DNA from: an uncultured bacterium | GTDB taxonomy: Bacteria; Krumholzibacteriota; Krumholzibacteriia; LZORAL124-64-63 | Length of the DNA: 64,000 nt | Direction: 5' to 3' | Assembly (NCBI GenBank): GCA_963727525.1 | Contig: CAVSGO010000007.1 | Location: 2,080,001-2,144,000, forward strand | Shown here: positions 3,456 to 51,809 of the stretch, piece after piece | Numbering within the stretch: the first letter of the stretch is position 1 | Layout of the letters: every line of letters begins with the position of its first letter | The notes under the pieces: generated by a model | What the model saw: the letters and a program-made list of their open reading frames with translations, nothing else | Database searches by the model: none | What the model was told of the DNA's origin: nothing | Program-made: the position numbers and the translations under genes

Positions 3456-3938
3456 CTACTGGAACAGGGTCTTGACGCTTCCCCAGGAGGTCGGCTCGGT
3501 AGGGACGACCACGAAGGTGAAGTTGCCGCGGATGCAGCCGTCGGGGTAGTTCTCCTCGGCGACCTGGATGGCCAGCGCGGCGTTGTCGAGGGCGTCATGC
3601 ATCTCGGGGGTGATCGCGAACGTCCCCGCGAGCGGTGACCCCAGCGGCAGCGTCATCAGGGAAGGCCCCGTCTCGCCTGCCGCCGCGTGGAACAGGACCG
3701 CGCCCGTCTCGGGGCTTTCGAGACCAGCGAAGTTCAGTGTATACGCGGCCTGCGACCAGTCGTCCGCGACCACGAGCGTCGCCATGCCGTAGGCATCGGC
3801 CGCGCTGGCAGGCACGACGTAGTCGGGCAGCATCGTCGCCTGGAACACGATCTCCGCCTGTGCCGGCGTCGATGTCCCGAGCACGGCAATCAGGGCGAGG
3901 AACAGAATCGATGCACTCGTCAATCTCATGGTTGTCAT
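3456..3938 (-). CDS. Secreted CHRD-domain protein with C-terminal WGxxK tail
   Basis: Signal peptide (..PAQA-E); CHRD-like VVP..AYGMATL..YTLNFAGL..YPDGCIRG; ends VPTEPTSWGSVKTLFQ; GGAGG RBS. Confidence 0.8.
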   Translation of the reverse strand: MTTMRLTSASILFLALIAVLGTSTPAQAEIVFQATMLPDYVVPASAADAYGMATLVVADDWSQAAYTLNFAGLESPETGAVLFHAAAGETGPSLMTLPLGSPLAGTFAITPEMHDALDNAALAIQVAEENYPDGCIRGNFTFVVVPTEPTSWGSVKTLFQ

Positions 3939-4161
3939 GGCCAATCCTCCACCCCAGGTTGGGGTCGTTTGCGGTTCTGAGTCGCCTGATTATACGGGAG
4001 ATCACTTGATACGTCCACGTAAAACTTACGATAAGCTAAAATTTACACAATTTCACCAGCCAAAGGACCAATAATGCAAAGCAATGGAGACAATATCGCC
4101 AAATTAGAGCCTATTAAGACAATTTTATTCCAATATACACCCTCTGTCGCCCCCGTCGTCA

Positions 4162-4640
4162 TCATCGGGGACCGACAGGACGTCCGTGGACGCCGAGCAG
4201 GTCCCATGCCGGCACACGAAGGCGATCGCATCTGTGCCGCAGCAGCATCCTGAAGGAAGCCACAATCGCCAGCAAGTCGCGAATGCCCTTCTGCACCGCC
4301 TTGGGGTCTGGACGGCCGAACTGCTCTTCGGGTTCCTGGCGACGACGCTTCTGGTCGATGGCACCGCAGGTCTTGGCCATGAGTTGCGGAAGGATGTCGG
4401 GTCGCTTGAGCCAGTAATCCGGGGAGAAGGTCTGTGAACTGAAGGAGACGCGCCAGTGTAGGCAGAGAAACCTGGGGATACGTTGGGGATGGGCCTGGCG
4501 GGTGAAGAAGCCGATGCGTTTGAAACGCCAGCCTGGCTGGAGCTCACTGTGGAACAGGCAGTTATGGTTGGGGCAGAAGGGAGGCCGCCAGGTGGGTTGG
4601 TGGGATTCGGTGCACGCCATGGCTCCCGGCCAGGGCAAGC
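4162..4640 (-). pseudogene. Internally deleted transposase-like remnant (N-terminal Zn-ribbon)
   Basis: PPFCPNHNCLFH..GFFTR..RIPRFLCLHW..FSSQTFSPDYWLKRP (second Cys replaced by Trp) joined abruptly to FGRPDPKAVQKGIRDLL; lower GC; family not determined. Confidence 0.55.
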
Positions 4641-4692
4641 CGGTGGCCGGACACATTTTCGACGGCACAACCAAACCTTTTCTTGCGAATCG

Positions 4693-4721
4693 TTACCAAT
4701 CGCTTATCCATATGCTACTTT
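4693..4721 (+). promoter_or_regulatory. Putative sigma70 promoter for the iscA/act cluster
   Basis: TTACCA-17 nt-TACTTT with an extended TG before the -10. Confidence 0.4.
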
Positions 4722-4788
4722 CGAGGTCTGAAATCCACCACGCCCGCGCCCGACGGCGACGCGCGGCGTGCCGGGAGGGTAGAGAATA

Positions 4789-5112
4789 ATGATCAATCTG
4801 TCGCATTCCGCGGTTGCCGAGATCCGGAAGATGATGCAGGATCGTGGCCTCGCCGAAGCGGTGGTGCGTTTCGGAGTGGAGTCGGGCGGATGTTCCGGTA
4901 TGCAGTACAGCATGGACTTCGACGATCAGGTCCACGGTGATGATGAGGTCTTCACCCAGGATAACCTGAAGATCGTCTGCGACCGGAACTCGCTGACCTA
5001 CCTCGACGGCCTGAAGGTGGACTTTTCTACCAAGCTGATGGGTGGCGGGTTCAAGTTCGAGAACCCCAACGCCAGTCGCAGCTGTGGTTGCGGAACCTCC
5101 TTCCGCGTCTAG
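4789..5112 (+). CDS. HesB/IscA/ErpA-family A-type Fe-S carrier
   Basis: GGCSGMQY, GGGFKFENPNASRSCGCGTSF. Confidence 0.93.
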   Translation: MINLSHSAVAEIRKMMQDRGLAEAVVRFGVESGGCSGMQYSMDFDDQVHGDDEVFTQDNLKIVCDRNSLTYLDGLKVDFSTKLMGGGFKFENPNASRSCGCGTSFRV

Positions 5113-5253
5113 AACCGCACCAGCCTGTCGCGGGAACCCCGGTGAGGGGTTGCAATGGCGAGCATGAACGAGCGGTCTTGATCCGACCGCCTGGCCAGCC
5201 TCGGTGCGCCCGGGGCGCTCACGTCGGACCTGGCAGCAATAGGGGAGCGTTCC

Positions 5254-5979
5254 TTGGCGAGCGACGACCGCGAGAACCGTACGGGCCGCCCCGCAGACGA
5301 CGGCGCCCATCAGGACCCTGATTCCCGCCATCACCGCTTACTCTTTCCTCGCTGGACCAACGCCATGGGTCCAGCCATGGGCATCCTCGGCGTCGGTGGC
5401 CTGATCTACCTCACGGTGATCATCACTATGGTTTTCAACCCCAAGACGTCCGCCATCGGCTACGCGCCGGAGCAGCCGGTGCCCTACAGCCATGCGCTGC
5501 ATGTCGGCACATTGGGTCTGGACTGCCGCTACTGCCACACGACGGTGGAGAAGGCGGCCTACGCGGCCCTGCCCTCGGCCGAGATCTGCATGAATTGCCA
5601 CAAATCGATATGGTCGGAGAGCCCCAAGCTCTTGCCCATCCGCGAGGCGTACGCCACCGGCAAGCCCGTGCGCTGGGTCAAGATCCATGACTTGCCCGAT
5701 TTCGCCTACTTCGACCACAGCGCGCACGTGAATGCCGGTGTGGGGTGCGTCACCTGTCATGGCCGCATCGACAAGATGGAGGTCGTGTCGCAGCAGAAGA
5801 AGCTCACGATGAGCTGGTGCGTCGCATGCCATCGCAACCCCGACCCCAACCTGCGTCCGCGCGAGTTCGTGACGTCGATGGAGTGGGTGCCCGATAAGGA
5901 TCCCTCCGTCCTGGGCAGCGAGCTGCGCAAGAAGCACAACATCAACCCGTCCACCGATTGCTCCACGTGCCACCGTTAG
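5254..5979 (+). CDS. actA: Alternative complex III pentaheme cytochrome c subunit
   Basis: One TM helix; GYAPEQPVPYSH; five CxxCH (CRYCH, CMNCH, CVTCH, CVACH, CSTCH); start codon uncertain. Confidence 0.93.
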   Translation: MASDDRENRTGRPADDGAHQDPDSRHHRLLFPRWTNAMGPAMGILGVGGLIYLTVIITMVFNPKTSAIGYAPEQPVPYSHALHVGTLGLDCRYCHTTVEKAAYAALPSAEICMNCHKSIWSESPKLLPIREAYATGKPVRWVKIHDLPDFAYFDHSAHVNAGVGCVTCHGRIDKMEVVSQQKKLTMSWCVACHRNPDPNLRPREFVTSMEWVPDKDPSVLGSELRKKHNINPSTDCSTCHR

Positions 5980-6005
5980 GCGCGAGCGCTGGGAAGGATT
6001 GCCGC

Positions 6006-9119
<3,114 letters not shown>

Positions 9120-9133
9120 ACGGAGCCTGACGC

Positions 9134-10605
<1,472 letters not shown>

Positions 10606-10609
<4 letters not shown>

Positions 10610-11160
10610 GCGCACCGGCCGATCGGTTCTATGGCTTGATGACGGAATTCGAGGATCCGCGCGAATTCGTCGTCGCCTGCACCAAGGTGCGTGACTCGGG
10701 CTTTCTCCACTGGGACGCCCACACGCCCTTCCCCGTGCACGGCATGGACGAGGCCATGGGCATCCGCGGCACCAGGTTGCCATTCATCATCCTCGGCGGT
10801 GGTTTGACGGGTATGGGACTGTCGTTGCTCATGATCTGGTGGATGAACGGGGTGAACTACCCCTTCGTCATCAGCGGCAAACCGCTCTTCGGCTTGCCCG
10901 CGGCCATTCCCATCACCTTCGAGTTGACGGTCTTGCTGAGCGCCCTGTCCACCTTCTTCGGGATGTGGCTGAGCAACGGCCTACCACGTCTCTCGCACCC
11001 TCTGTTCAGTAGCGAGCGATTCCGGCGCGCCACGGCCGATCGGTTCTTCATAGTCATCGAGGCGCGCGATCCGCATTTCGATCGCGGGAAGACGCGCGAG
11101 TTCCTGGCCTCCCTCGGCGGCACCGTCGTGGAGGAGATCCACGACCTGGCGGAGGATTGA
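10606..11160 (+). CDS. actD: ACIII subunit D (DUF3341)
   Basis: GTG overlaps the actC stop (GTGA); [28 protein letters not shown]. Confidence 0.93.
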
Positions 11161-11163
11161 CGC

Positions 11164-11811
11164 ATGCCCCGTTCGCTCATCATCATCGGGCTCATCCTGG
11201 TCACGTTCACGCTCGTGCCCCTGGCCTGCATCGTGAAGGCACAGCACGATCCGGCCAAGCGCTTGCCGCGCTACCAGGTGGTCCCGGACATGGACACGCA
11301 GCCCAAGTTCAAGACGCAGGCGGAGAACCCCTTCTTCGCCGACGATCGCGCCATGCGGGAGCCGGTGGCCGGTACGGTGGCGCGGGAACACTTCTTCACC
11401 GATCAGCGCGAAGCCACGGGCAGGGAGCCGGACAGCACCTTCACCACCGTCTTCCCGCTGAAGGTCACCGATACCCTGCTTCGCCGCGGCCAGGAGCGCT
11501 TCGGCATCTACTGCACGCCATGCCATGGACTCGGTGGCGCTGGCGACGGCATGGTACACAAGCGCGCCGAGGCCTTGCAGCAAGGCACATGGACGCCGCC
11601 GGCCGATCTCGCCAGCGAGACCGTCGTGGCACGCCCCGTGGGCCACCTCTTCAACACGATCACCAACGGGATCCGCAACATGCCGGCGTATGGCCACCAG
11701 ATCCCGGTCGACGATCGCTGGGCCATCGTGGCGTACGTGCGTGCCCTCCAGCGCGCCCGCAACGCGACGTTGCAGGATGTACCCGAAGACAAGCGTAGCA
11801 ATCTGAGGTAA
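11164..11811 (+). CDS. actE: ACIII monoheme cytochrome c subunit E
   Basis: DMDTQPKFK, PVAGTVAR, RGQERFGIYCTPCHG, ITNGIRNMPAY, DRWAIVAYVRALQ. Confidence 0.93.
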   Translation: MPRSLIIIGLILVTFTLVPLACIVKAQHDPAKRLPRYQVVPDMDTQPKFKTQAENPFFADDRAMREPVAGTVAREHFFTDQREATGREPDSTFTTVFPLKVTDTLLRRGQERFGIYCTPCHGLGGAGDGMVHKRAEALQQGTWTPPADLASETVVARPVGHLFNTITNGIRNMPAYGHQIPVDDRWAIVAYVRALQRARNATLQDVPEDKRSNLR

Positions 11812-11816
11812 TCGCA

Positions 11817-13031
11817 ATGCAACATTCCGATTCTCCCCGTCTCAGCGACACGAAGATCGAGATGGGTTCGCTCGGACGGCGGGTGACGACCGTCGCCGGT
11901 GGCGTGGGCGTGCTCGCCCTGGCCGTGGCTGTCCTGCTCGGAATGCGCGAAAACGATCACCTGCGGCATTTTTCGTTCAGCTACCTGGTGAACTACGCTT
12001 ACTTCCTGAGCATCTCGCTCGGCGCCCTGGTCTTTCTGCCGATCCAGCACGTGACGCGCTCGAGCTGGTCGGTCGTGATCCGGCGTCTCGCGGAGGTCGC
12101 GGCGGCCGCCTTGCCGCTGATGGCGCTGCTGCTCGTGCCCATCCTGCTGAACCTGGGCCACATCTACTCCTGGGTGCACGGCGATCCGCAGTACCCGGCC
12201 GAGCTGCTGGCCAAGAAACGCGGCTTCCTGAATCCCACGTTCTTCGTCATCCGCTGGATCGTCTACTTCGGTCTGTGGACGTGGCTCGCCATGTTCTTCT
12301 GGCGCACCAGTCGCCGCCAGGACGCCACTCGCGACCACTGGCTCAGCCTGCGCATGATGAACCGCTCGGGTCCGGCCATCGTGATCTTCGCGCTGTCCTG
12401 TTCGCTCGCGAGCATCGATCTGCTGATGACGCTCGACTACGCCTGGTTCTCCACGATGTTCGGCGTCTACTACTGGGCTGGCGGGTTCGTGGCGTTCTTC
12501 GGCTTCCTCACGCTCGCCACCATGCTACTGCAGCGTAGCGGACGCATGGAACGGATCGTGTCGATGGAGCACTACCACGATTACGGCAAGCTGATGTTCG
12601 CCTTCACGTTCTTCTGGGCCTACATCGCCTTCAGCCAGTACATGCTCTACTGGTACGCCAACATCCCCGAGGAAACCGCGTGGTACCTGGCGCGGCAGAG
12701 CCACGGCTGGGCGCGGGTGGGTCTTGGTCTCGTGTTCGGTACGTGGATGATCCCCTTCGCCGGACTCATGTCGCGCTTCACGAAGCGCCACAAAGCGACG
12801 CTGGCCTTCTTCGCAGTCTGGATCGCCGCGGCGCAGTGGATGAACGTGTACTGGGTGACGATGCCGGTGTTCAGCCCCGAGCGCGTGCCGTTCTCGCTCA
12901 TGGATCCCCTGTGCTTCCTCGGGATCGGCGGGCTCTGGCTCGCCACGGTGGCGTGGCTGGCGTCGCTCGATAAATTGGTGCCCGTGGGCGATCCGCGGCT
13001 GGTCGATTCCCTCGAGTTCGAGAACGCTTAG
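11817..13031 (+). CDS. actF: ACIII membrane subunit F
   Basis: About 10 TM helices; WFSTMFG, HYHDYGKLMFAF, YIAFSQYMLYWYANIPEET. Confidence 0.93.
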   Translation: MQHSDSPRLSDTKIEMGSLGRRVTTVAGGVGVLALAVAVLLGMRENDHLRHFSFSYLVNYAYFLSISLGALVFLPIQHVTRSSWSVVIRRLAEVAAAALPLMALLLVPILLNLGHIYSWVHGDPQYPAELLAKKRGFLNPTFFVIRWIVYFGLWTWLAMFFWRTSRRQDATRDHWLSLRMMNRSGPAIVIFALSCSLASIDLLMTLDYAWFSTMFGVYYWAGGFVAFFGFLTLATMLLQRSGRMERIVSMEHYHDYGKLMFAFTFFWAYIAFSQYMLYWYANIPEETAWYLARQSHGWARVGLGLVFGTWMIPFAGLMSRFTKRHKATLAFFAVWIAAAQWMNVYWVTMPVFSPERVPFSLMDPLCFLGIGGLWLATVAWLASLDKLVPVGDPRLVDSLEFENA

Positions 13032-13043
13032 GAGACGGTGGTC

Positions 13044-13331
13044 ATGCCTGCTGCGCGCGAAAACCTGGACACGCCGATGATCGTGACGATCGGCGCCCTC
13101 CTGGTTATTCTCACGTTCGTGCTCATCTTGTTGCTGCAAGCCTGGTTCTTCCAGGCTCAGGGCCAGGAGTACAGCCGCAAGGTCGTCAATCAGCGCAACG
13201 AGGACCTGGCCACCCTGCAGGCCGCCCAGGCGGAGGCTCTGCACAGCTACCGCTGGATCGACAAGGACAAGGGCGTGGTGAGTATCCCGATCGACCGCGC
13301 CATGGACGCCATCGTTCGCGAAGGCCTCTGA
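13044..13331 (+). CDS. actG: ACIII small subunit G-like protein
   Basis: Single TM; LHSYRWIDKDKGVVSIPIDRAM; located between actF and sco. Confidence 0.75.
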   Translation: MPAARENLDTPMIVTIGALLVILTFVLILLLQAWFFQAQGQEYSRKVVNQRNEDLATLQAAQAEALHSYRWIDKDKGVVSIPIDRAMDAIVREGL

Positions 13332-13378
13332 CCCGACCCGCCGCCGCGCCGGGCCTTCGCGGGAAGGATCCGATTCCC

Positions 13379-14242: not shown

Positions 14243-14430
14243 GCGCGACAGAATTCCTCCGCCTTTTGTATTGCATTTCCGAGGGATTGAATAGATATTG
14301 AGAGCCGAAATCCGGTGGCTCTCACAGCCTCGGAAGACCCCCGGCGCCACGGCGCCTTGCCGCCCGAGCGATGTCGGGTCCAGCCGGGAATCCGGGTCCA
14401 GCTATCGCCAAGACAAGGAGATGCACGACC

Positions 14431-15537: not shown

Positions 15538-17219
<1,682 letters not shown>

Positions 17220-39091: not shown

Positions 39092-39748
39092 ATGCGCACC
39101 CTGATGATCGTTCTGGTCGCTGCAGTTCTGCTGGCGACTCCGGCCCTGGCCGAGCGGACTTATGACTACTACTGGCAGGTCGACGGCGCCACATTCCTGG
39201 GCTCCTTCGACAACTGCACGGGCGAACTGTCGTCCGACATGAACTTTCCCATGCACACCGGCTCCGCCCTGAAGCTCACGAAGACCATCAGCGTGACGGA
39301 GGGCTACTCGACGGGTTTCCTGGCGGCAGTCTGGAACCTCAACGAGGGCGACCAGGTCACCTACAGCTACTGGCGCTACGACGCCATCGTAGGCTATCCG
39401 CGCGTGCGCCTTTGGGCTCACTATAACGACGCCCTCGGCGCGCCCGACAACCGTAGCCATGACATGCTGGTCAACGATGGCCTGGCATACGGCAACAACT
39501 CCTTCGGGTACGAGTCGGGCTGGGAACAGGTCAGCTATACCTGGACCATGCCGGCCGGCCACGTGGGCCTGGTCATCGACTGTGTCATCTATGGCGACTA
39601 CGGCTCCGAGGTCTACGTCGACGACATGTCGATCACCGTTCCGGACAACGCCTGCGTGCAGGACCCCGCCGTCTACCACGACGAGATGGGTTCCCCCACG
39701 GCCGTCGAGGCACAGACCTGGGGCACCGTGAAGGCTCTGTTCCAGTAG
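39092..39748 (+). CDS. Secreted protein of unknown function (beta-rich, possibly CBM-like) with C-terminal WGxxK tail
   Basis: GGAGG RBS; signal peptide (..PALA-E); ends [17 protein letters not shown]. Confidence 0.85.
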
Positions 39749-39788
39749 TCCGCACCGCGCGACCGGACGATCGGATGATGAGGCGAAC

Positions 39789-39817: not shown

Positions 39818-39849
39818 CGCCGCATCTCGGGCAGCCCGGACGATCCGGC

Positions 39850-40974: not shown

Positions 40975-43553
40975 TGCAGATCCTCCCGGGTCAGCTCGGC
41001 CGCCGCGGTGCGGCTGCCGCGCAGCGCTGGCACGATGCTGGCCGCCAGCGCACCCGCGAGAACCCAGGCCGATTCGCGCAGCAGGTCGCCCACGGGCAGA
41101 CCGAAGCGGATCGTCCAGCCGAAGTAGGCGCGGTTGATGAGCAGGATGAGGATAGCGGCGAGCCCGGCACCGCCGATGGTGCCGAGCAGCAGTCCCGCCA
41201 GACCCATGGCGCCGGCCTCGCCCACGGCAAGCCCGAATACCTGGCGTTGCGTGGCGCCGAGCGCACGATAGAGCGCCAGTTCGGCGGCCCGCTCGCGCGC
41301 CATGATCACCAGGGTGAGCGAGATGCCACACACCGCGATGAGCAGCGCCATCGCCTGCAGGATCCGCGTGATGGCGAAGGTCTGGTCGAAGATGCCCATC
41401 ACCTCCTCGCGCAGGCGGCGATTGCTGCGAAAGACGAGCGGCCGTCCCGCGTAGGCGGCGCGCAGGGCATCGACCGTGTGTTCCACGTCCACGCCGGGGG
41501 CGACATACAGCGCGAGATTCGTGGCGCCGCCCGGCCCGTAGATCGCATCGAGAGTCGGACGCGTGACGAAGGCCGTGCCCGACTCCGTGCTGTAGTCGTA
41601 GCCCACGCCCACCACCTCGAGCGGCACCGGCCCGGATGGCCCGGCCACCCGCAGCGTGTCGCCGATACCGAGATGCGCCTTGCGCGAGAGAGGCTCGCTG
41701 ATGAGCACCGTGCCGCCCTCCCGCAAGCGCCGCTCCACCGCCTCGCGCTTGCCGGCGAGCAGCGGCAGTCGTGCCGCCCACGCGTCAGACTCGCGGCCGA
41801 GACGCCGCATGCCGCTGATGAAGAGGCGACGCCCTTCCACCGTGCGCGCCGTGACGCGCCGTTGGACGTCGGCCCCCACGATGTCCGGAAACCCGGCGAG
41901 CGAATCGGCGAGCGCATCGCCGAGCACGGCCTGGCTCCCGCCCTGCACCCACGACTCGGTGGACACGTAGACGTCGGCCCGCAGTGTGAGCCCGATCCAG
42001 GTCTCGAGGGTGCGGCGGAAACTGCCGATCTGCAGCGTGATGCCCACCATCATCGTCACCGTCACGGCCAGCGCGGCCACGGCGAAGCTCGTCGACTGCA
42101 AGCGCACGGCGAGGTTGCGCAAGCTCAGCCGCCAGCCGAAACCGCCCGGACGCACGCGACCGCAGCCGGCCCGCAGTAGCCAGGGCGTCACCAGCGGCAG
42201 CAACGCGAGTAGGGCGATCGCCAGCACGAAGCCGCTCGCCTTGACGCGCGTGCCGAAACTGATGAACCAGACGAGCGTCACCGCAGCGAGCCCGAGCGCA
42301 CCGAGCGCGAGGCGTGGCGCGGCCTTGCCCAGCTTTTCTTGCAGCCCCCCCGCGGCGAGCAGGGCGGCCGGATCGCGGCGGCTCATATCGGCCGCCGGCA
42401 ACCATGCACCCAGCAGCGCGCCACCCACGCCCACGGCCACCGCCACACCCGCGAGGACGGGCGGAAACGTGAGCTTCTCGATCGCGCTGAGCAGGTAGAT
42501 GTTGGTGAGCGTGCTGCTCACCGTGGCGACGTTGGCGCGGGCAGCGAGGTAGCCGAGCGGCAGGCCGAGCGCCGTGCCCGCCAGCCCCAGCATGCCGGCC
42601 TCCACGAGGATGAGTCCGAGCACCTGGCGCCGCGTGCCGCCCAGAGTGCGCAGCAGGCCGAACTCGCGGCGGCGGCGCACGAGGGAGGCATGGATGGCGG
42701 TGAAGATGAGGAACACGCCGACGAAGACGCTGATCAGGCTCAGGGCCGTGAGATTGAGCCGGAAGGCGGCCAGCAGACCGGCCGCATCCTGGTCGCGCTG
42801 ATCGGGCGTGACCACGCGCACGCCGGGACCGAGGACGGCCTGCAGCCGTGACTGCGCGCGCGCGACGTCCACGCCCTCGCGCACCGTGAGATCGATCTGC
42901 TGGATGCGCCCGCGCCGTCCGAACATCGCCTGCGCCTGCGCGATGTCCATGAGCGCCATCTTGCCGCTGGCCAGGGGCGCAAGCCGGCGAAAATCGACGA
43001 GTGCTCCCACGTGCAAGCACCACGCGCGGCTGCCGCTGCTGATGGCGATGGTGTCACCCTCGGCCAGGCCGTGCGCTGCCGCGAACCGGGGCGTGATCGC
43101 CACCCAACCGGGCTCCGTGAGCGCTGCGGCGAGCGCGTCGGGGGCCGGGGTAGCCCCGATCTCGCGCACCCGCTCGGCGGAGATCGGATAGCGCACGGGG
43201 GCAAAGAAGTCGATGCCGATCACCTCCAGGTACTCGGGCGAGCCCGGCGTGCCGGTGTGGGTTACGGCCACCGGCGTGTGCGTGAGCGGCCAGGCGGTGG
43301 CGACATCGCGATCGGCGAGCACCGCCACGAGCAGGGAGTCGGCCAGGTCGGGCCCCTGGCCGAGCACCGTGAGGTCGGCATCGCCGCTGACGGCCTGCAC
43401 GCCGCCGCTGAACGCGGCCAGGGCGCTCTGGTTGATCGTCTGGATGCACACCACCGACGCCACGCCGAGCGCCACGCCCACCACGGTGAGCGCATACAGC
43501 GTGCGCGAGCGGCGCAAGAGCGCGGGGAAGGCGCGGCGCAGATAGGCGATCAC
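40971..43553 (-). CDS. FtsX/MacB-family ABC permease (AttFG-like)
   Basis: GVALGVA, AFRLNLTALS, RRREFGLLRTLG, FDQTFAIT, INRAYFGW; GTG overlaps the ATPase stop. Confidence 0.9.
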   Translation of the reverse strand: MIAYLRRAFPALLRRSRTLYALTVVGVALGVASVVCIQTINQSALAAFSGGVQAVSGDADLTVLGQGPDLADSLLVAVLADRDVATAWPLTHTPVAVTHTGTPGSPEYLEVIGIDFFAPVRYPISAERVREIGATPAPDALAAALTEPGWVAITPRFAAAHGLAEGDTIAISSGSRAWCLHVGALVDFRRLAPLASGKMALMDIAQAQAMFGRRGRIQQIDLTVREGVDVARAQSRLQAVLGPGVRVVTPDQRDQDAAGLLAAFRLNLTALSLISVFVGVFLIFTAIHASLVRRRREFGLLRTLGGTRRQVLGLILVEAGMLGLAGTALGLPLGYLAARANVATVSSTLTNIYLLSAIEKLTFPPVLAGVAVAVGVGGALLGAWLPAADMSRRDPAALLAAGGLQEKLGKAAPRLALGALGLAAVTLVWFISFGTRVKASGFVLAIALLALLPLVTPWLLRAGCGRVRPGGFGWRLSLRNLAVRLQSTSFAVAALAVTVTMMVGITLQIGSFRRTLETWIGLTLRADVYVSTESWVQGGSQAVLGDALADSLAGFPDIVGADVQRRVTARTVEGRRLFISGMRRLGRESDAWAARLPLLAGKREAVERRLREGGTVLISEPLSRKAHLGIGDTLRVAGPSGPVPLEVVGVGYDYSTESGTAFVTRPTLDAIYGPGGATNLALYVAPGVDVEHTVDALRAAYAGRPLVFRSNRRLREEVMGIFDQTFAITRILQAMALLIAVCGISLTLVIMARERAAELALYRALGATQRQVFGLAVGEAGAMGLAGLLLGTIGGAGLAAILILLINRAYFGWTIRFGLPVGDLLRESAWVLAGALAASIVPALRGSRTAAAELTREDLQ

Positions 43554-44269
43554 GAGGCGTCCGCCGGACGGGTCTGCGGGTCGGCGGCATCGATATGCAA
43601 CACGCCGCTGTGCAGATGCCACACCTCATCGGCCAGCGCCGCTTGCTCGGCGCTGTGCGTGACGAAGAGCAGCGACGCCCCCTCCTGCCGCACGAGGCGC
43701 AGCAGCAGGTCCATCACGAGGCGACCGTTCTCGTCGTCGAGGTTGCCGGTGGGCTCGTCCGCCAGCACGAGCGGGGCCCGCATGAGCAGAGCGCGGCACA
43801 GCGCCACGCGCTGCATCTCGCCGCCGCTGAGGCGGCTCGCGCGGTCTTCGGCATGAGCGACCAGGTCGACGCGCGCCAGCAGGTCGCGCGCCCGCCTGCG
43901 CAACGACGCGGCGGCGTCGCCGGCGATCCAGCCAGGCAGCAGCACGTTGTCGAGCACCGTGAGGTGCGGCAGGAGATGGAAGAACTGGAAGAGGAGCCCG
44001 ACCTGACGCCGGCGCAGAAGCGTGCGCTCGCGCTCACCGAGCCGGGCGAGGTCCCGGCCGCCCACCTCCACGCGCCCGCTGGTCGGCACGTCGATGCCGG
44101 CGGCGAGATGCAGCAACGTCGACTTCCCGCTGCCGCTGCGGCCCACCAGCGCCACCGCGGCACCGGCCGGCAGGGCGAAGGTCACGTCACGCAGCACGTC
44201 CCGGCGCCGGCCGTCCGGCAGCGAAAAACTCCGGCATACGCGATGACATGCGAGAGCCACGTCGCTCAT
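43550..44269 (-). CDS. LolD/AttE-like ABC ATP-binding protein
   Basis: GRSGSGKST, FQFFHL, LSGGEMQR, LADEPTGNLD, VTH. Confidence 0.92.
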   Translation of the reverse strand: MSDVALACHRVCRSFSLPDGRRRDVLRDVTFALPAGAAVALVGRSGSGKSTLLHLAAGIDVPTSGRVEVGGRDLARLGERERTLLRRRQVGLLFQFFHLLPHLTVLDNVLLPGWIAGDAAASLRRRARDLLARVDLVAHAEDRASRLSGGEMQRVALCRALLMRAPLVLADEPTGNLDDENGRLVMDLLLRLVRQEGASLLFVTHSAEQAALADEVWHLHSGVLHIDAADPQTRPADAS

Positions 44270-44533
44270 CCTCACCTCCGGCGGCCGCGCGGCGCGGATC
44301 GCCGCGCGGCGTGGAAGTTAGCACGGACGACCGGGCCCGGCATCCCATCACGCCGCACTCGCACCCACCAGCACGGTCACGATCCGCGCCAGCAGGATCA
44401 GTGTGATGATGTCCATCGTCGTCGAGTGTTTCGCGTCCTCGATCGTCTCTGTGATCGTCTGTACCGTCGAACGTCTCCATCGTCAGCGCTTGATGATCCG
44501 CACGGCCGTCGTACGCGCAATCATCGCGCGTCC

Positions 44534-44716
44534 TTGACATTATATAGACATTACCGGACACGCCGAGGACAGGCCGCAGGATAGATCAAGAAGAGAAGAA
44601 TGGTTGTTTTTACTCAAAAAAAAGAACTTACGAGAAATTCAGCCCGGATATTCCGAGGCGTTCGCCGAGTCCGCGCTTGATCCGTGTCCACAGGTTGTCT
44701 ACCTTAACCTGTCCAC
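44534..44716. promoter_or_regulatory. Divergent promoters, each overlapped by TGTCnn direct repeats (CarH/LitR-like operators)
   Basis: Left array TTGACA/TAGACA/CGGACA/AGGACA with 11/10/11-bp spacing over a minus-strand TATAAT; right array TGTCCA/TGTCTA/TGTCCA over TTGATC-17 nt-TACCTT. Confidence 0.55.
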
Positions 44717-44764
44717 GGCGCAACTCCGATCGAATCCCGCGCCGCGGATACGAAGGAAGTCGAT

Positions 44765-45652
44765 ATGCTGCGACCGAGCGAGATCTCGGTGGCCATCGTG
44801 GGAGCCGGCGTCGCCGGGCTGAACTGTGCCGCGCGCCTCATGAGCATTGGCACGCGCGTGCGGCTGTACGACCGGGGACGAACCCCCGGCGGCCGCGCCA
44901 GGCGGCGGCGCGAGGGACCGTGGCGGTTCGACCACGGCGCGCCCGAACATGCCGAGCTGGTACGACGCCTCGCGGCCGGGCTCGCGATCGAATCGAGCAC
45001 CCGCATCACGAGCCTCGCCACCGATGCCGCAGGACGCTGGTATCTTACGCGCGACGGTGGTCCCGTCGCCGACACCTATGACTTCGTCGTACTCGCCATG
45101 CCGCCGGAGCAGGCGATCCCGTTGCTCGTCGAGACCCCCGGCCTCGCGCGCGTGGTGGCCCGGGTGAAACTCGAACCGCGCCTGGCGACCATGGTGGGGT
45201 TCCCGCGGACACTGGCCAGCACCCCCTCCGAGTGCATTCCCGCGTCCGGACCGCTCGCGTCGGCCCGCCGGCAGGTGCTGCACGGCTCCGCGCCAGCGGG
45301 AGACGCCTGGGTTCTCCAGGGTACAGCCGAGTTCAGCCGGGACAATCTCGAGTGCGACCTCGAGACCGTGGCCCGCCACCTCCTGCATGCATTCGCGGAC
45401 GAGGTCGGGTCTCTGCCCCCGACCTCCTACCTGCGCGGACACCGCTGGCGTTACGCCCGGACGGACCATCCCCTGGGCATGGACTGCCTCTTTGATTCCA
45501 CGCGCGGCATTGGAGTGTGCGGCGACTGGTGCCGCGGCGATGACGTGTTCGCGGCCCTGCTCAGCGGCCGCGCCATGGCGGCCCGCATCGCCGCCACGCA
45601 CGAACTCCCGCACATCCTCGACGAACGTCTCAGCCGAGAGACGGTGGCGTAG
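44765..45652 (+). CDS. Renalase-like NAD(P)/FAD-dependent oxidoreductase
   Basis: IVGAGVAG, FDHGA, HRWRYA, GVCGDW, ALLSG. Confidence 0.85.
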   Translation: MLRPSEISVAIVGAGVAGLNCAARLMSIGTRVRLYDRGRTPGGRARRRREGPWRFDHGAPEHAELVRRLAAGLAIESSTRITSLATDAAGRWYLTRDGGPVADTYDFVVLAMPPEQAIPLLVETPGLARVVARVKLEPRLATMVGFPRTLASTPSECIPASGPLASARRQVLHGSAPAGDAWVLQGTAEFSRDNLECDLETVARHLLHAFADEVGSLPPTSYLRGHRWRYARTDHPLGMDCLFDSTRGIGVCGDWCRGDDVFAALLSGRAMAARIAATHELPHILDERLSRETVA

Positions 45653-48600
45653 GCCGCGGTCGCAGGCGCCCGCCGAAACGCTGCAACGCGCGTCCCGCCC
45701 GGGATCCGGCCGAGACGGTGTCCTCGGCAAGGGTGGCGGTCGCGGGCAGCAGCACCGCCGTGAGGAATGTGGAGACGAGCAGTCCGCCCATGATCACCAG
45801 GGCCATCGAGTAGTAATAGACGCCACCGAGGCTCGGCTTCTGCACGACGATGGGCACGAGGCCGATGAGCGTGGTGACCGCTGTCATGATGATGGGGCGC
45901 AAGCGCTCGCGGCCTCCGCGGAGCATGGCGGCATGGCGCGCCATGCCGCCTCGCCGGTAGTAGTTGATGTGCTCCAGCATGACGATGCCGTTGTTGACGA
46001 CGATGCCGATGAGCAGGAGCAATCCGATGGCCGCCGGCTGGTCGAAGTCGGTCTTCGTCAACCACAACGTCCAGAACGCGCCGGATAGCGCGAACGGCAG
46101 GGCCACCATGAGCGCCACGGCCTGCGGCACGGATTCGAAGAGTCCCGCCATTACGGCGAACACCAGCAGCAAAGCGAGCAGCAGGTTCGTGATGAACTCG
46201 TGCGACTGTTCCTGGCGCTGCTCGACCCAGCGGCCGAACGTCCAGCCGTAGCCATAGGGAAAGTTCATGCCGGCCATGACCCGGCGTACCTCGTCCATGT
46301 AATGGTCCGTGGTGCCGTCGCGGAAACGCCCGCCCACCCAGATGCTCGTCTTGCGATTGTCGCGCTGGATGCGCTCCGGACTCGGTACGGGCGTGAACGC
46401 GGCGATGGAGGCCAGCGGTACCTTCTCCCCCGCATCCGTGTACAGGGGCAGGTTCTGGAGCTGCGCCACGCTCTCGTCCGCACGTTCGTCGAGAGTGAGC
46501 ATCATCTCGCGCTCCCCCTCCGGGGCGCGGAAGCGTTGCAGGCGACGCCCACGATAGGTGAGGCCGATCGTCTGGCCGACCTGATCGGGCGTCAGCCCGT
46601 AGCGCACCGCGAGATCGCGATCGACCTCCACGTGCATCTCCTGCGCCGCATCCTGCTCGCGCGTGCCGACATCGAGCAGACCGGGTATCGTCTCCAGCCG
46701 CTGCACGGCCTGCTCCGCGAGGGTCTGGAGCACGCTCGTATCCTCGCCGTAGACGGCGAAGCCTACCCGCTTGCCACCGCCGTGCCGCCAGCCCTGTGTA
46801 TTGTCCTCGATCCGGCACTCCACGCCGGGAATCTGGGGCACCATGGCGCGTAGCTGGGAGCGCATGTGGCTCAGCGTCGCCTCGTTGGCATCGCCCTCGG
46901 GCGGATAGAAGCGCAGCATCGACCAGCGATCGCTCCAGAACGCATAGATTGCCCGTACGTTCAGCTCGTCCTTGTGCGGCGCAAAGACATTCTCGATGCG
47001 GGTGATCATCGCTTCCTTCTGGTCGAGCGCCACCTCCTCGCTGAAGCGCACCTGCATCTGTACGAACATCTCGGCGTTCTCCGCCCCGAAGTTCTTGTCG
47101 ACGTGCTGGAACGGGTACCAGGTGGAGGCAAGCATGGCCACGCCCACGACCGGCGTGAGCCAACGGTGGCGCAGGAAGAAGCCGAGGGTGCGCTCGTGGC
47201 GGACCTCCAGCCCCCGCATGAAGCGGTCCTTGGGGCGCGGCTGCGCCTGGATGACCAGGCTGGTCGCCAGCGGGATGAGCGTCTGGCTCACGAAGAGCGA
47301 CGCCAGCAGGGTGAGGCACACCGTGATGCCCAGCTCGCGCAGGTAGACGTTCATCTGGCTGGGCTTGTTGAAGATCAGCGGCAGGAACACGATGACCGAG
47401 GTGAGCGTGGCGGCGGTCACGGCCACCGACACCTCGCGCGAGCCGCGCAGCGACGCCTCGCGCCCGGGCATCCCTTCCTCGCGATAGCGGAAGATGTTCT
47501 CCATCACCACGACGGCGTTGTCCACCAGCATGCCGATGCCCACGATCAGCCCCAGCAGCGTGAGCGTGTTCATGTTGCCGCCGCGCGCCCAGATGACACC
47601 GCAGGTGACGATGAGGGAGAACGGGATGCACGCCGTGGCCACGAGCGTGGACGAGACGCGGCGCAGGAACGCGAAGAGCACCAGCGCCGCCAGCACGGAA
47701 CCGAAGATGCCCGTGAAGGTGAGATCGCGCAGCGTCTTGCGGATCTCGGCGCCCTGGCTGAACCAGGTGATGAACGTGACACCCTCGAGCTCGGGGTCGT
47801 CGTCGAGGGCCGCGATGCGCTTCTGCAGCGCGTCGCACACGGTCACGGTGTTGGCCTTGCTCTCCTGGGTGACGGTGACGCCAATGGCGAAATCGCCATC
47901 CAGATGTCGACCATAGTCGAGCGGCGGCTCTGTGTAGCGCACGTCGGCCACGTCGCGCAGGCGCAGCCCGTCGCCGCGCAGCGGCAGGTTGGCGATCTCG
48001 TCGACCGTGGCGAAGGCGCCCACGGTGCGCACGGTGAAGCGCGTAGCCCCATCGGTGACTCGGCCCAGCGACATGTCGAAGTTGCTGCCGCGCAGGATGC
48101 GCGCCACGTCGCGCACGTCGATGCGGTGCAGCTCCAGATCGGCGATGCGCAGGTTGATGCGTACCTCGCGCTGCCGCACCCCGTCGAGCCGCACGGTGGC
48201 CACGCCCGGCACGCGCTCGAGCGGGCGGATGATCTTGCGTTCGAGCAGATCGTAGCTCTCGCTCAGGTTGCGTTTGCTCGACAGGCGCCCTTCCAGGATG
48301 GGCATCTCGTCTTCCTGCCCATCCCAGCTCCGGCTCAGCTGGATGTCGCCGATGTCCTCGGGCAGGTCGCCGCGGATGCGGTCGATGCGATCCCACACCT
48401 CGGCGCGGGCCAGGTGCAGGTCGGTGCCCGCGGCGAACCCGAGCCGCAGGCGGCCGCCGTCGGAATCGCAGTTCGACCACATCTCCTTCAAGCCCGTCAC
48501 CGAGCCGACTGCGTCCTCGAGCGGGCGCACGATCATGCGCTCCACCTGTTCAGGCGACGCGCTGGGATAGCTGGCCTGGATGAAGAGCTCGGGCTCCTCG

Positions 48601-48719
48601 AAGTCGGGCATGAAGGCGAGCGGCAAACGCGTGAGCGCCACGGCACCCAGCACGACCATGCTGACCAGGATCGTCAGCATCGCGACGGGGCGGCGGATCG
48701 CGATTTCGGGCAACGTCAC
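45630..48719 (-). CDS. RND efflux permease (AcrB/AcrD/AcrF family)
   Basis: AIRRPV, YPSASPEQVE, GMLVDNAVVVMENI, GIVVNNGIV, RLRPIIMT. Confidence 0.93.
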   Translation of the reverse strand: MTLPEIAIRRPVAMLTILVSMVVLGAVALTRLPLAFMPDFEEPELFIQASYPSASPEQVERMIVRPLEDAVGSVTGLKEMWSNCDSDGGRLRLGFAAGTDLHLARAEVWDRIDRIRGDLPEDIGDIQLSRSWDGQEDEMPILEGRLSSKRNLSESYDLLERKIIRPLERVPGVATVRLDGVRQREVRINLRIADLELHRIDVRDVARILRGSNFDMSLGRVTDGATRFTVRTVGAFATVDEIANLPLRGDGLRLRDVADVRYTEPPLDYGRHLDGDFAIGVTVTQESKANTVTVCDALQKRIAALDDDPELEGVTFITWFSQGAEIRKTLRDLTFTGIFGSVLAALVLFAFLRRVSSTLVATACIPFSLIVTCGVIWARGGNMNTLTLLGLIVGIGMLVDNAVVVMENIFRYREEGMPGREASLRGSREVSVAVTAATLTSVIVFLPLIFNKPSQMNVYLRELGITVCLTLLASLFVSQTLIPLATSLVIQAQPRPKDRFMRGLEVRHERTLGFFLRHRWLTPVVGVAMLASTWYPFQHVDKNFGAENAEMFVQMQVRFSEEVALDQKEAMITRIENVFAPHKDELNVRAIYAFWSDRWSMLRFYPPEGDANEATLSHMRSQLRAMVPQIPGVECRIEDNTQGWRHGGGKRVGFAVYGEDTSVLQTLAEQAVQRLETIPGLLDVGTREQDAAQEMHVEVDRDLAVRYGLTPDQVGQTIGLTYRGRRLQRFRAPEGEREMMLTLDERADESVAQLQNLPLYTDAGEKVPLASIAAFTPVPSPERIQRDNRKTSIWVGGRFRDGTTDHYMDEVRRVMAGMNFPYGYGWTFGRWVEQRQEQSHEFITNLLLALLLVFAVMAGLFESVPQAVALMVALPFALSGAFWTLWLTKTDFDQPAAIGLLLLIGIVVNNGIVMLEHINYYRRGGMARHAAMLRGGRERLRPIIMTAVTTLIGLVPIVVQKPSLGGVYYYSMALVIMGGLLVSTFLTAVLLPATATLAEDTVSAGSRAGRALQRFGGRLRPRPTPPSLG

Positions 48720-48925
48720 GTCGGCCTCACTCGGCGGTGCGGGATGGACTCAAGTTAGGCGTCTGGACCGGGCGATCGCAACCATGGTGCGAATGAATCC
48801 CTACGCAGGCCGTAACGCGATGTTCCCGCCGCGATGTTCCCGCCGCTTGCTGCCCTCCCGCCGATCTGCGATGATCCCAGCCGTTCCCGTCGCCGCCCCA
48901 TCGCCCGCCCCGCCCGGAGGCTGAA

Positions 48926-51181
48926 ATGAGCCGCGAGCATCGCGACCGTCTGCTTGTGGTGGCGCTCGTGGGGTGCGCGGCCTGGTTGCGCATCTGGCAC
49001 CTCGGACAGGGGCTGCCCGACTTCGTCGAGGAAGCCATCCCCTTGCGCCGGGCCATGGCGATGGGTGGCTGGCAGGCGGGTCATGTCGATCTCGATCCAC
49101 GGTTTTTCAATTACCCGTCCCTCGTCATCTATCTCGAGCTCGCGCTGGTGCGCCTGCAGATTCTCGTGAGCACGCTGGGCGGGCATCTGGCGTCGGCGGC
49201 CGATTTCTGGGTGCGTTTCCAGACCGACCCCACGGGTCCCGTGCTGCTGGCGCGGGGTCTCAGCGTGGCTGCTGATCTTGCCGCCGTGGTGGGTGCGTGG
49301 CGCGTAGCCGAGCGCCTGCGCCCCGGCGCGGGTCTGCTCGCCGGCGTCGTCGTGACCTTTGCCGGCGTTTCGATCGCGATCGCCCGTCTCGTGCAGGTGG
49401 ATCCCGTGCAGGGGGCCCTGATGATCTGGGCCGTCGAGCGCTTGCTCGCCTTCCTGACGCGGGGAGGCCGCGGGAGGCTCGCCGGCGCCATCGTGCTCAT
49501 CGGCCTCACGGCGGGCGCGAAGTACCCCGGCGGGTTGCTCGTCGTACCGCTGGGGTGGGTGCTCTGGCGACGCGAGGGACGGCGCGGCCTCGCCCTGGCG
49601 CCGATCGCGGCGGCCGGCTGCGTCCTGGTGTTCCTCGCGACGACGCCGTACGCGCTGCTGGATCCGGGCGCGTTCTGGCGCGACGTCGGTTTCGAACGCA
49701 GCCACATGGCCACGGGGCACCTGGGCACGGAAGGATCGCTGGGGGCCGCATTCGCCGCCTCCACGCTCGTGCGCAACCTGGGCCTGCCGCTGATCATGCT
49801 GGCGCTGGGCTTCCTCGTGGCCACTCTGCGGCGCGCGCGCCGGACTGCGGCCGCGGCCGACATGACCGTGGCCCTGGCGTGGTTGCCCCTGGTGTGCGCG
49901 GTCGCCCTGGCACGGATGCAGGCCGAGCGCTACCTCGTGCCGCTCGTCCCCCTTATTGCCGTGATGGGCGCCGCCGCGGTGGCGGATCTCCTCGCGCGAC
50001 CGTCCCCCTGGCATGTGCTGGCCACACCGGGATGGCGCCGCGCCGTGCACGTGCTGGGCGTGTTGGTCTGCATCCCGGTGGTATGGCACGGGTTTCCGGT
50101 CGCCGCAGCGGGACGCGGCCATACCCAGATCCAGGCCCGGCGCTGGCTCGAGGCCCACGTCCCCGACGACCGGATCATCGTGGCCGAGCCCTACACCGCC
50201 GCCGTTCCCAACGAGTTCGACGACGCACGCGTGCTCGCCCACCCGGCCTGGGCGCAGGCGAGCGACGGCGTGCGCAGCGATTACCTCGCCGCTCCGCGCC
50301 ACGCCTTCGTGTCGCTTCCGCTGGTGGTGAGCGGATCGGTCGACGTCGACGTCGTCGATCTCGCGGGCCGGCCTGCCACGATCACGCTCTTCCCTCATGC
50401 CGACGCCATCAATGCGGTGTTCTACACGCCGCAACTCATCGCGGGCGTGGCCTACGCGGTCGTGAGCGACGCCGTCCGTGGCCGCCATCGGGCCGATCCG
50501 GCGCGCTATCCGCGCCAGGTGGCGTTCTACGCGCTGCTCGATCGCACGGCTGTGGTGGCGCAACGCTTCGTCCCCGGCCACGGCATCGCCGGACCGACCA
50601 TCACCGTGTACAGCCTCGGCGACGCCTTCGGCAAGGCGATCGGCCCGCGGCTCGACCCTCTGTGGTGGACGGAGGTCGTGCCACTGGCGTTTCGCCGCCA
50701 GTTCGAGAACACGGCCGTGCCACCCGCGCACCGCTGCGGCGCGGCGCCCCGCTGCACCGACGGCCGGCCCTCGCCATGGGTCGTGGGACTCCGCCCGCCC
50801 TTCGCCCACTTCGTGGCGCCGTTCCTTAGGCGCCTCGCCGCCGCCCAGCTCGCAGCGGCGCACCCGGCGGCGGCCCGCCAGCTCGCCACGGCACTCGCCG
50901 TATCGGATCCGGACGACCCGCGGGGCACGCAGCTCTACGTGCAGGCGAGCCTCGCGGCCGGCGATCGCGAGGCCGCCATCAAGGCTCTGGATTACGCCAT
51001 CAAGCGCAACGACACCGGCGGCGGCGCCGCCGACCGCCTGCGGCTTGCGACGGTCCTGCACGAGATGAACCGCGATCCCGAAGCGGCCCGCGTCCTGCTC
51101 GACCTGCTGCGCGCCCCCGATGTCCCCGACAGCCTCGCCCGCGCCGCCCGCGATCTGCAGCGCCACCTGGCCCCCGACTAG
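48926..51181 (+). CDS. GT-C fold glycosyltransferase (PMT/ArnT-like) with C-terminal TPR-like region
   Basis: LRIWHLGQGLPDFVEE, PRFFNYPSL, GAKYPG, TTPYALLD, ERYLVPLVP; multiple TM helices. Confidence 0.8.
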   Translation: MSREHRDRLLVVALVGCAAWLRIWHLGQGLPDFVEEAIPLRRAMAMGGWQAGHVDLDPRFFNYPSLVIYLELALVRLQILVSTLGGHLASAADFWVRFQTDPTGPVLLARGLSVAADLAAVVGAWRVAERLRPGAGLLAGVVVTFAGVSIAIARLVQVDPVQGALMIWAVERLLAFLTRGGRGRLAGAIVLIGLTAGAKYPGGLLVVPLGWVLWRREGRRGLALAPIAAAGCVLVFLATTPYALLDPGAFWRDVGFERSHMATGHLGTEGSLGAAFAASTLVRNLGLPLIMLALGFLVATLRRARRTAAAADMTVALAWLPLVCAVALARMQAERYLVPLVPLIAVMGAAAVADLLARPSPWHVLATPGWRRAVHVLGVLVCIPVVWHGFPVAAAGRGHTQIQARRWLEAHVPDDRIIVAEPYTAAVPNEFDDARVLAHPAWAQASDGVRSDYLAAPRHAFVSLPLVVSGSVDVDVVDLAGRPATITLFPHADAINAVFYTPQLIAGVAYAVVSDAVRGRHRADPARYPRQVAFYALLDRTAVVAQRFVPGHGIAGPTITVYSLGDAFGKAIGPRLDPLWWTEVVPLAFRRQFENTAVPPAHRCGAAPRCTDGRPSPWVVGLRPPFAHFVAPFLRRLAAAQLAAAHPAAARQLATALAVSDPDDPRGTQLYVQASLAAGDREAAIKALDYAIKRNDTGGGAADRLRLATVLHEMNRDPEAARVLLDLLRAPDVPDSLARAARDLQRHLAPD

Positions 51182-51305
51182 CCGTCCGCGGCACGCCGCG
51201 ATTTTCCGTCGACAACGCCACGTGGCTGGGGTAGGATGGCCTCACATCTGGGGGTTCTACTTTGTGCTTTTCTCGAATCCCGAGGCTATCGGGGGAGGTT
51301 CATTG

Positions 51306-51809
51306 ATGAAACGACAGCTATTGCTAGTACTTGCGGCGAGTCTGTTCGTCCTGAGTATTCCGGTCGTCGCCCTTGCGGACGCGTCGATCGTGCAGCTCTG
51401 GTGCCATGCGCCGGACGATACGCCGAACATCGTGGAAGTGCATTTCTCGGTGGTCAATTACAGCACCGATGAGCCGATCTGCGGCTTCTCGCTGCGCTCG
51501 GAGCCGTTCCCGCCGTACGACGGCTGCGTGCCGCTGTGGCTGCAGGACACGCCGGGCTGGACGGGATCGCTCAATGCCATGGGTGGCGCCGACTGGACGG
51601 CCGACGCCGGCCACTGTATCACCGCTCCGAACATGGACGGCGAGTTCGTGATCGCGTTGCCGGATCCCGACAACACCTTCTGCTGTTACGTGGCGCAGTA
51701 CCTCGACGCCGCAGGCAACGTGCTGGTCGAGCAGGAGGAGTGCTTCTACTGTTCCGTGGTGCCGACCGAGTCCACGGACTGGGGTAGCATCAAGAGCATG
51801 TATCGCTGA
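51306..51809 (+). CDS. Secreted Cys-rich protein of unknown function with C-terminal WGxxK tail
   Basis: GGGGAGG RBS; signal peptide (..VALA-D); 8 Cys; ends VVPTESTDWGSIKSMYR. Confidence 0.85.
   Translation: MKRQLLLVLAASLFVLSIPVVALADASIVQLWCHAPDDTPNIVEVHFSVVNYSTDEPICGFSLRSEPFPPYDGCVPLWLQDTPGWTGSLNAMGGADWTADAGHCITAPNMDGEFVIALPDPDNTFCCYVAQYLDAAGNVLVEQEECFYCSVVPTESTDWGSIKSMYR

Follow-up and report, generated by a model that had tools for sequence, protein, structure and literature searches.

The type A C-terminal domain (CTD) of the T9SS (type IX secretion system; TIGR04183 / PF18962, and PF13860, FlgD_ig-like, in the phylum considered here) is a seven-stranded β-sandwich of 70 to 100 residues. 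It carries the motifs B, D, and E and forms the extreme C-terminus of Sec-exported proteins of extracellular type. According to passages of PMC11285876, the T9SS targeting signal of HBP35 lies within the last 22 residues of its CTD, strand β7 of the CTD features a conserved lysine, a C-terminal extension is tolerated, and the export of RgpB is blocked on removal of two residues. Passages of PMC11969387 describe shortened CTDs of Prevotella intermedia, which still work, being cleaved and glycosylated; 48 short CTDs stand against 32 long ones, and the short ones have shorter spacers between the motifs. The tripartite signals—LPXTG, PEP-CTERM, GlyGly-CTERM, and MYXO-CTERM—are small portable tags on many unrelated exported proteins and consist of a motif, a transmembrane helix, and a basic cluster. 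The element described here is a C-terminal tail of approximately 16 residues, carried by three genes in a 64-kb stretch of DNA from an uncultured member of the Krumholzibacteriota (contig CAVSGO010000007.1, positions 2,080,001 to 2,144,000 of the forward strand; hereafter the window). It shares its position and its portability with the CTD and its small size and its many unrelated carriers with the tripartite signals. However, it lacks motifs B and D of the former and, with only 8–9 residues after its Trp, the hydrophobic span of the latter. The tail exists, is abundant and portable, is under strong selection, and has no model in the copies of Pfam and NCBIfam searched.

Gene 1 (3456–3944, minus strand) encodes an exported CHRD-domain protein (PF07452, 49.4 bits). 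Its tail, VPTEPTSWGSVKTLFQ, occupies 3459–3506, adjoins the stop codon at 3456–3458, and fits the consensus columns. Gene 2 (39092–39748, plus strand) encodes an exported β-sandwich protein of 218 residues with the tail at 39698–39745, and gene 3 (51306–51809, plus strand) encodes an exported Cys-rich β-sandwich protein of 167 residues with the tail VPTESTDWGSIKSMYR at 51759–51806. The latter two tails are delimited by the open reading frame (ORF), by alignment of orthologs or relatives, and by AlphaFold2 (AF2) models. The bodies of genes 2 and 3 match no Pfam family over the cut-off. The original prediction, made on the letters of this DNA, had described three ORFs with near-identical ends, Sec-type signal peptides, and unrelated bodies. 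All three ORFs are present with ends as claimed; the start of gene 1 extends from the ATG at 3938 to a TTG at 3944, giving 162 instead of 160 residues. Each protein features a hydrophobic N-terminal signal peptide ending in AxA, as read from the sequence. Homology of the three proteins over their full length is refuted: with the tails removed, the best cross-match between the bodies has an E of 0.16.

The genome holding the window has a size of 4.66 Mb, a G+C content of 67%, a completeness of 96.7%, and 3,644 rough gene calls. A wide consensus—V-[AP]-[TV]-E-P-x-[ST]-W-[GS]-x-[VI]-K-[AS]-[LM]-[FY]-x-stop—finds the tail on 85 of these calls, that is, on approximately 1 in 40 genes or 2% of all genes; 54 tails feature WG, 27 WS, and the remainder FG or LG. 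The WS, FG, and LG variants came to light through paralogs. The strict end WG.[VILM]K..[FYW].-stop occurs in 43 of 58,084 six-frame ORFs, and a DNA pattern for the tail has 37 matches in this genome. The extrapolation from three copies to many per genome is therefore borne out by the 85 tails found, and the notion that few other proteins carry the motif is refuted. The placement at the C-terminus holds likewise: in 54 ORFs the strict WG motif is 1–5 residues away from the stop, and in only four is it deeper inside. A strong N-terminal hydrophobic stretch is present in 51 of 55 WG-tail ORFs, in line with the expected co-occurrence with signal peptides, as judged by a heuristic that is biased because the start codon was picked to maximize this stretch.

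The tail proteins are small, with a median length of 235 residues compared with 728 residues for the CTD proteins of the same genome. Tail genes encoding 130 or more residues number 80 and fall into 51 body families. Pfam domains on 40 family representatives are Beta_helix/NosD, CHRD, NIDO, Cohesin, DUF642, PPC, Calx-beta, CBM_4_9, LTD (twice), and GH28—all domains typical of extracellular proteins—as well as DUF4397, MAM, and DUF7450, and 25 of the 40 representatives are without a Pfam family. The tail is hence portable between unrelated bodies. Two tail genes near contig ends (C7:5925-7094 and C8:263359-264528) are 100% identical, and each adjoins an identical CTD gene; this duplicate is either an unresolved repeat or assembly redundancy and raises the count of 85 by one. 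The stop codons of the 85 tail genes are TAG in 40, TGA in 33, and TAA in 12 cases, compared with 2,248 TGA, 1,147 TAG, and 243 TAA for all gene calls. TAG and TAA also prevail among the tails listed from other phyla.

The 83 distinct tails of this genome share the consensus x-[SP]-V(62)-[AP]-[TV]-E(54)-P-x-[TS](66)-W(76)-[GS]-x-[VIL]-K(83)-[SA]-L(62)-[FY]-[R/E/Q], in which the numbers in brackets count the distinct tails with the given residue. A single residue follows the aromatic one in 70 of the 83. Approximately 15 of the 85 tails either have 2–6 residues after the aromatic one or miss the final residue. Upstream of the tail, Cys is frequent 10–16 residues N-terminal to the Trp and probably closes the folded domain.

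The tail is retained where the bodies diverge. All 32 orthologs of the 218-residue protein, which are 44–63% identical to it, keep the tail, and W210, K214, and F217 are invariant. The three database relatives of the CHRD protein keep it as well. The 167-residue protein was searched exhaustively with HMMER against 1.84 billion cluster representatives, which yielded 64 matches. The tail is kept in 61 of them—57 fit the tail expression, and four are one-residue variants or have a longer extension—and the other three comprise an unrelated protein of 511 residues and two that look like fragments. An alignment of 42 sequences of this family, with a mean column identity of 29%, has only five invariant columns, and W159 and K163 are among them. 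Trp and Lys stay invariant across orthologs with bodies down to approximately 24% identical. Because these two residues are invariant in families with diverged bodies, the tail is constrained more strongly than the bodies to which it is attached, and selection acts on the tail itself. The family of gene 3 also features a conserved C-F-x-C pair 9–12 residues N-terminal to the tail Trp and four more Cys columns kept in at least 90% of the sequences; it is probably a disulfide-stapled β-sandwich.

The AF2 model of the 218-residue protein has a confident β-sandwich body, whereas residues 207–218 have a predicted local distance difference test (pLDDT) score below 50 with a hint of helix at 214–217. 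The model of the 167-residue protein has a pLDDT of 91.4; its linker, at approximately 65, leads into a helix at residues 159–166 with a pLDDT of approximately 74. The nine tail residues have a helical hydrophobic moment of 1.53 compared with 0.91 ± 0.43 in shuffled tails. As judged by these models, the tail is an exposed linear motif outside the fold, composed of a flexible linker and a short amphipathic helix, for which the Ser/Thr before the Trp would fit as a cap. The "mini amphipathic helix" of the original prediction agrees with both AF2 models and with the helical moment.

The range of the tail was scanned with a DNA pattern for WGx[VI]Kx[LM][FY]x-stop in 201 genomes sampled from the phylum of the window. 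The pattern occurs in 192 of them, with 0–50 copies per genome, and a control pattern read backwards has no match in any of the 201. The pattern undercounts, since in the seemingly tail-poor genus g18 the orthologs end in W-[TS] tails instead of W-G. A narrower pattern, applied to prokaryotes at one genome per species, yielded at least 132 loci. An open frame with the same upstream linker is present at 130 of the 132 loci listed. Among the matches listed with labels (80 of at least 132 loci), the names are mostly Eisenbacteria, Krumholzibacteriia, or plain "bacterium," and all 14 genomes reached from these loci hold 6–32 copies. In addition, two further small neighboring GTDB phyla carry the tail in all genomes searched (12 and 10, respectively). 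Records labeled "uncultured Fibrobacteraceae" and "Candidatus Latescibacteria" have SprA coordinates and scores identical to those of genomes of the window's GTDB phylum. They were dropped as evidence of range, as they are apparently the same genomes; the NCBI organism labels of such metagenome-assembled genomes are unreliable for taxonomic range.

The genome with the window features SprA (480 bits summed), PorU (436.5 bits at a cut-off of 420), and, directly downstream of PorU, a PorV-family barrel (174.5 bits at a cut-off of 90). As judged by these profile scores, the T9SS core of SprA, PorU, and PorV is complete. A CTD profile built from 140 seed CTDs of the genome itself finds an ending of the FlgD-Ig or type-A-like kind on 219 genes, and Pfam FlgD_ig alone matches at least 150 places in the genome. 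One of the 219 lies in the window (55343–58690, plus strand) and serves as comparator: it encodes a protein of 1,115 residues, whose FG-GAP label is that of the original prediction, taken over without a Pfam scan. The PorU–PorV operon (C7:789001-804500) also contains a CTD-bearing, M6-like inactivated metalloprotease of 1,136 residues (NF052323, 186.9 bits, below the cut-off), two barrel-like proteins of 306 and 264 residues ending in Phe, an NHL-repeat lipoprotein, and a protein of 1,134 residues with a short SprA-like stretch. This operon may be the phylum's version of the T9SS attachment complex.

Tail and CTD exclude each other: none of the 219 CTD genes and 85 tail genes bears both. The two endings are also exchanged between paralogs. 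Relatives of tail proteins with bodies that are 25–40% identical end in a CTD instead, as in the β-helix family and among the relatives of C1_-0_4116 and C7_+2_540430. The swapping of the tail for a FlgD/T9SS CTD, which had been proposed as a check, is thus seen in β-helix and other paralogs, and the reading of the tail as an alternative to the T9SS CTD fits both the swaps and the mutual exclusion. A CTD hidden past the stop codon and reached by read-through or frameshift was considered and rejected, as none of 255 downstream frames matches the CTD profile.

Tail genes and CTD genes are also located together. A CTD gene is the immediate neighbor of 27 of the 85 tail genes, compared with 9.6 ± 2.9 in random gene sets (none of 2,000 simulations reaches 27), a threefold excess over chance, and another tail gene is the neighbor of 16 tail genes compared with 3.8 expected. 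Of 30 adjacent tail–CTD pairs, 21 are on the same strand; the CTD gene is upstream in 10 of these and downstream in the other 11. This adjacency looks like clustering of the secretome and not like fixed partnerships.

The reading that we favor, while stopping somewhat short of calling it probable, is that the tail acts as a minimal tag that sorts or anchors its carriers and is coupled to outer-membrane machinery of the T9SS type. The portable tag of approximately 16 residues would begin with the linker V-[AP]-[TV]-E-P-x, continue with a Ser/Thr cap, and end at the free C-terminus in an amphipathic helix of two turns, W-[GST]-x-[VI]-K-[AS]-[LM]-[FY]-x. The tail proteins would be exported by Sec and fold in the periplasm, where the tail would remain exposed after folding. 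A protein receptor would then read the tail, and these mostly small, single-domain proteins would be sent to, or held at, the cell surface. The most likely reader would be the outer-membrane secretion and attachment machinery of the T9SS—PorV, PorU, SprA, or an accessory part—and the tail would be a minimal alternative to the β-sandwich CTD of approximately 80 residues. The observations on which this reading builds are the motif, its C-terminal position, portability, and conservation, its disorder-plus-helix character, its exclusion of and swapping with the CTD, and the proximity of tail genes to CTD genes in phyla that possess a T9SS. From these we infer the role as a sorting signal, the T9SS parts as its reader, and any cleavage of the tail.

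The sequence comparison of tail and CTD is mixed. The last residues of the 219 CTDs follow T-R-[KR]-[LMV]-[VT]-L-V-[KR], and those of the tails W-[GS]-x-[VI]-K-[AS]-L-[FY]-[RQE]. Positions −3 to −1 agree: position −3 is Leu in 70% of tails and 72% of CTDs, position −2 is hydrophobic in both, and position −1 is basic in 54% of tails and 94% of CTDs. Both have a strongly conserved basic residue farther upstream: Lys at −5 in 100% of tails and Lys or Arg at −6 in 79% of CTDs. The tail resembles the P. gingivalis "Motif C-t." or motif E and the 22-residue region of HBP35, as given in passages of PMC11285876, in being short, C-terminal, and equipped with a conserved lysine. Targeting to the T9SS depends on that region, in which deletions are harmful and short extensions tolerated; the variable ends of the tails accord with the latter. 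The P. gingivalis motif is, however, the last strand of a folded domain, whereas the tail is a free peptide that is not strand-like and has its Lys one position off. The short CTDs of Prevotella intermedia, as far as the passages of PMC11969387 describe them, are likewise a shortened T9SS signal, yet the tail is far shorter still and is without their motifs. By analogy with HBP35 and Prevotella, a minimal T9SS-type signal is plausible.

Several points weigh against a coupling of the tail to the T9SS. The conserved Lys of the tail is one residue out of register with the basic residue of the CTD, and the tail looks helical, whereas the last element of the CTD is a β-strand. An alignment of the tail profile with the start of the CTD by hhalign came back blank. 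The motif [STAG][PAT]V[ED] is present in 17 of 181 pre-CTD linkers, clustered 15–20 residues before PNPF, and the pre-tail linker profile scores 6 bits or more in 8% of pre-CTD linkers and 3% of body windows compared with a median of 16.3 for real tails. A fixed gene order or a shared partner domain was not found among the 30 tail–CTD pairs. A receptor for the tail was found neither by the analysis of neighbors, nor by profiling within the phylum, nor by the survey of the PorU–PorV operon; the 418 genes within three positions of the tail genes include no recurring dedicated gene. The T9SS is universal in these phyla, so that its co-occurrence with the tail does not discriminate. Among the 80 titles listed for the at least 132 loci, none is labeled Bacteroidota, and the survey of T9SS-bearing phyla covered the tail-positive groups; if T9SS phyla without tails exist, a T9SS alone would be insufficient for the use of tails. 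Finally, the genome features two secretin-family genes (C7:831570-832715 and C5:333781-334713) with 176.7 and 134.7 bits to GspD, both below the cut-off. Either a type II secretion-like system or type IV pili could account for them, and given these two genes an outer-membrane route other than the T9SS is possible.

The idea that the tail is the linker plus the first strand of a CTD was rejected as homology, given the blank hhalign result and the linker count, and a weak compositional likeness is kept. The PTAV[DE] linker that the original prediction saw shared between tails and CTDs stands to this extent only, with profile scores far below those of real tails. Profiling against T9SS genes, also part of the original prediction, had a divided outcome: SprA, PorU, and PorV are present, but SprA occurs in each of the phylum's 125 high-quality genomes examined. 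Within the phylum such profiling is uninformative, because SprA is universal and the WG pattern undercounts. Among the 14 tail-bearing genomes reached from other records, SprA is present in 13, and the 14th has eight PorV/PorQ-family genes over the cut-off.

That the tail is instead read by a dedicated, T9SS-independent machine—a receptor, peptidase, or transpeptidase of candidate phyla related to the Fibrobacterota–Chlorobiota–Bacteroidota (FCB) group—with the CTD link arising from secretome clustering is unlikely, if a serious contender. The absence of T9SS motifs B and D from the tails speaks for it. Pfam and NCBIfam models, those of CTDs included, do not match the tails even at E ≤ 1, and the genome's own CTD profile matches none of the 85 tail genes. 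In addition, the tail looks helical, unlike any CTD: AF2 renders it as low-confidence coil or a short helix, an Ig-like β-sandwich is absent, and 16 residues are too few for one. A specific peptide-binding pocket is suggested by the strictly conserved Trp and Lys together with their near-fixed spacing from the C-terminus, and the presence of the tail in every genome searched of the two small phyla is consistent with an ancient, lineage-specific system. Against it, no candidate gene recurs near the tail genes, the genomes examined include no tail-bearing lineage that is devoid of T9SS parts, and paralogs exchange the tail specifically for T9SS CTDs. The recurring neighbors within three genes of the tail genes are only CTD proteins, a transposase family of insertion-sequence type, kinases, and regulators. 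A transposase-like family of 369 residues with a Cys-rich, zinc-ribbon-like N-terminus has approximately 34 copies in the genome (e.g., C3:168835-169944 and C4:80857-81966); in 10 cases, a tail gene is at most three genes away. Two candidates for the reader were dismissed: the 306-residue protein of the PorU–PorV operon, which groups with DUF5683-like clusters common in Bacteroidota too, and a PorV2-like gene (145 bits at a cut-off of 325), which stands alone with uninformative neighbors.

Among the described C-terminal signals compared here other than the CTD, none coincides with the tail. NCBIfam models for sorting domains of the sortase, exosortase, and rhombosortase class do not match it, and it has no transmembrane segment; the original prediction was right in setting it apart from signals of the LPXTG, PEP-CTERM, or GlyGly-CTERM type. 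The β-signal of outer-membrane proteins ends in an aromatic residue with an alternating strand, whereas the tail has its aromatic residue at −2, a final Arg, Gln, or Glu, and a strand moment near the shuffled level (1.15 compared with 0.91 ± 0.49). Type I secretion signals go along with the lack of an N-terminal signal peptide and with export in one step by an ABC transporter, whereas 51 of 55 WG-tail ORFs have a hydrophobic segment resembling a signal peptide by the biased heuristic. PBP5 and PBP6 of E. coli expose a C-terminal amphipathic helix on a Sec-exported soluble domain, as the tail proteins would, but these anchor helices are approximately twice as long, bind the inner membrane, and have no motif common to unrelated families. 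A description of the tail was not found in searches of the literature on C-terminal sorting, T9SS and CTDs, Eisenbacteria, Fibrobacter, and Krumholzibacter, nor in the passages of PMC11495043.

Passive retention is a distinctly doubtful explanation: the tail would either stick to lipopolysaccharide or the outer membrane as an interfacial helix or dock small modules onto a large surface scaffold, and transport would follow another route. An amphipathic helix with Trp, Tyr/Phe, and Lys/Arg is made of residues typical of membrane interfaces, yet nine helical residues with a net charge of 0 to +2 are a weak membrane anchor alone, and the invariance of single residues (Lys in 83 and Trp in 76 of 83 distinct tails) fits a protein pocket better than lipid. 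The small single-domain cargo, shorter than the CTD proteins by the medians given above, and the 27 tail genes that adjoin a gene for a large CTD surface protein would suit docking on a scaffold, but the adjoining CTD proteins have no common domain to act as the socket. The presence of secretin genes would allow for the separate route of transport. Anchoring scaffoldins of cellulosomes bear a cell-surface anchor, and a cohesin protein of this genome bears its tail at the matching position. This cohesin-domain protein (C2:89765-90679; Cohesin E = 3e-14) has a tail of WG type. Seven small exported proteins (e.g., C4:16539-16808 and C7:1688707-1689336) have dockerin-looking ends with a duplicated D-x-DG-x-x-NL-x-DL, and only the one of 89 residues passes Pfam Dockerin_1, with 32.5 bits. 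A cohesin–dockerin surface assembly may be anchored via the tail.

It is very improbable that a periplasmic protease or chaperone of PDZ type recognizes the tail as a mark for maturation or degradation, with no role in localization, for although PDZ ligands hold their motif at a fixed distance from the free C-terminus and the tail keeps a near-fixed one (one residue after the aromatic in 70 of 83 distinct tails), the strong purifying selection across 51 unrelated extracellular-type families is hard to explain for a degradation tag, as is the alternation with T9SS CTDs in paralogs.

Short C-terminal tags such as LPXTG and PEP-CTERM have led to processing enzymes and to tools for protein display. 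The tail described here marks approximately 2% of the genes in entire phyla for which metagenomes are the only source, and its carriers are currently read as periplasmic or of no known kind. Recognizing it would improve the prediction of secretomes for bacteria of soil, sediment, and wastewater. We tentatively suggest that several uncultured, FCB-related phyla, namely the Krumholzibacteriota, the Eisenbacteria, and two or more small sister phyla, might use a third class of surface-sorting signal, a helical peptide of 16 residues that would take over the role of the T9SS CTD of 80 residues, would be read by an as yet unrecognized site on the T9SS attachment or translocon complex or by a new outer-membrane machine, and would route approximately 2% of the proteome. 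If the link to the T9SS is true, this system can accept a linear peptide where a folded domain is otherwise used, which would change the view of how its signals are recognized, and the tail would provide a very small tag for surface display.

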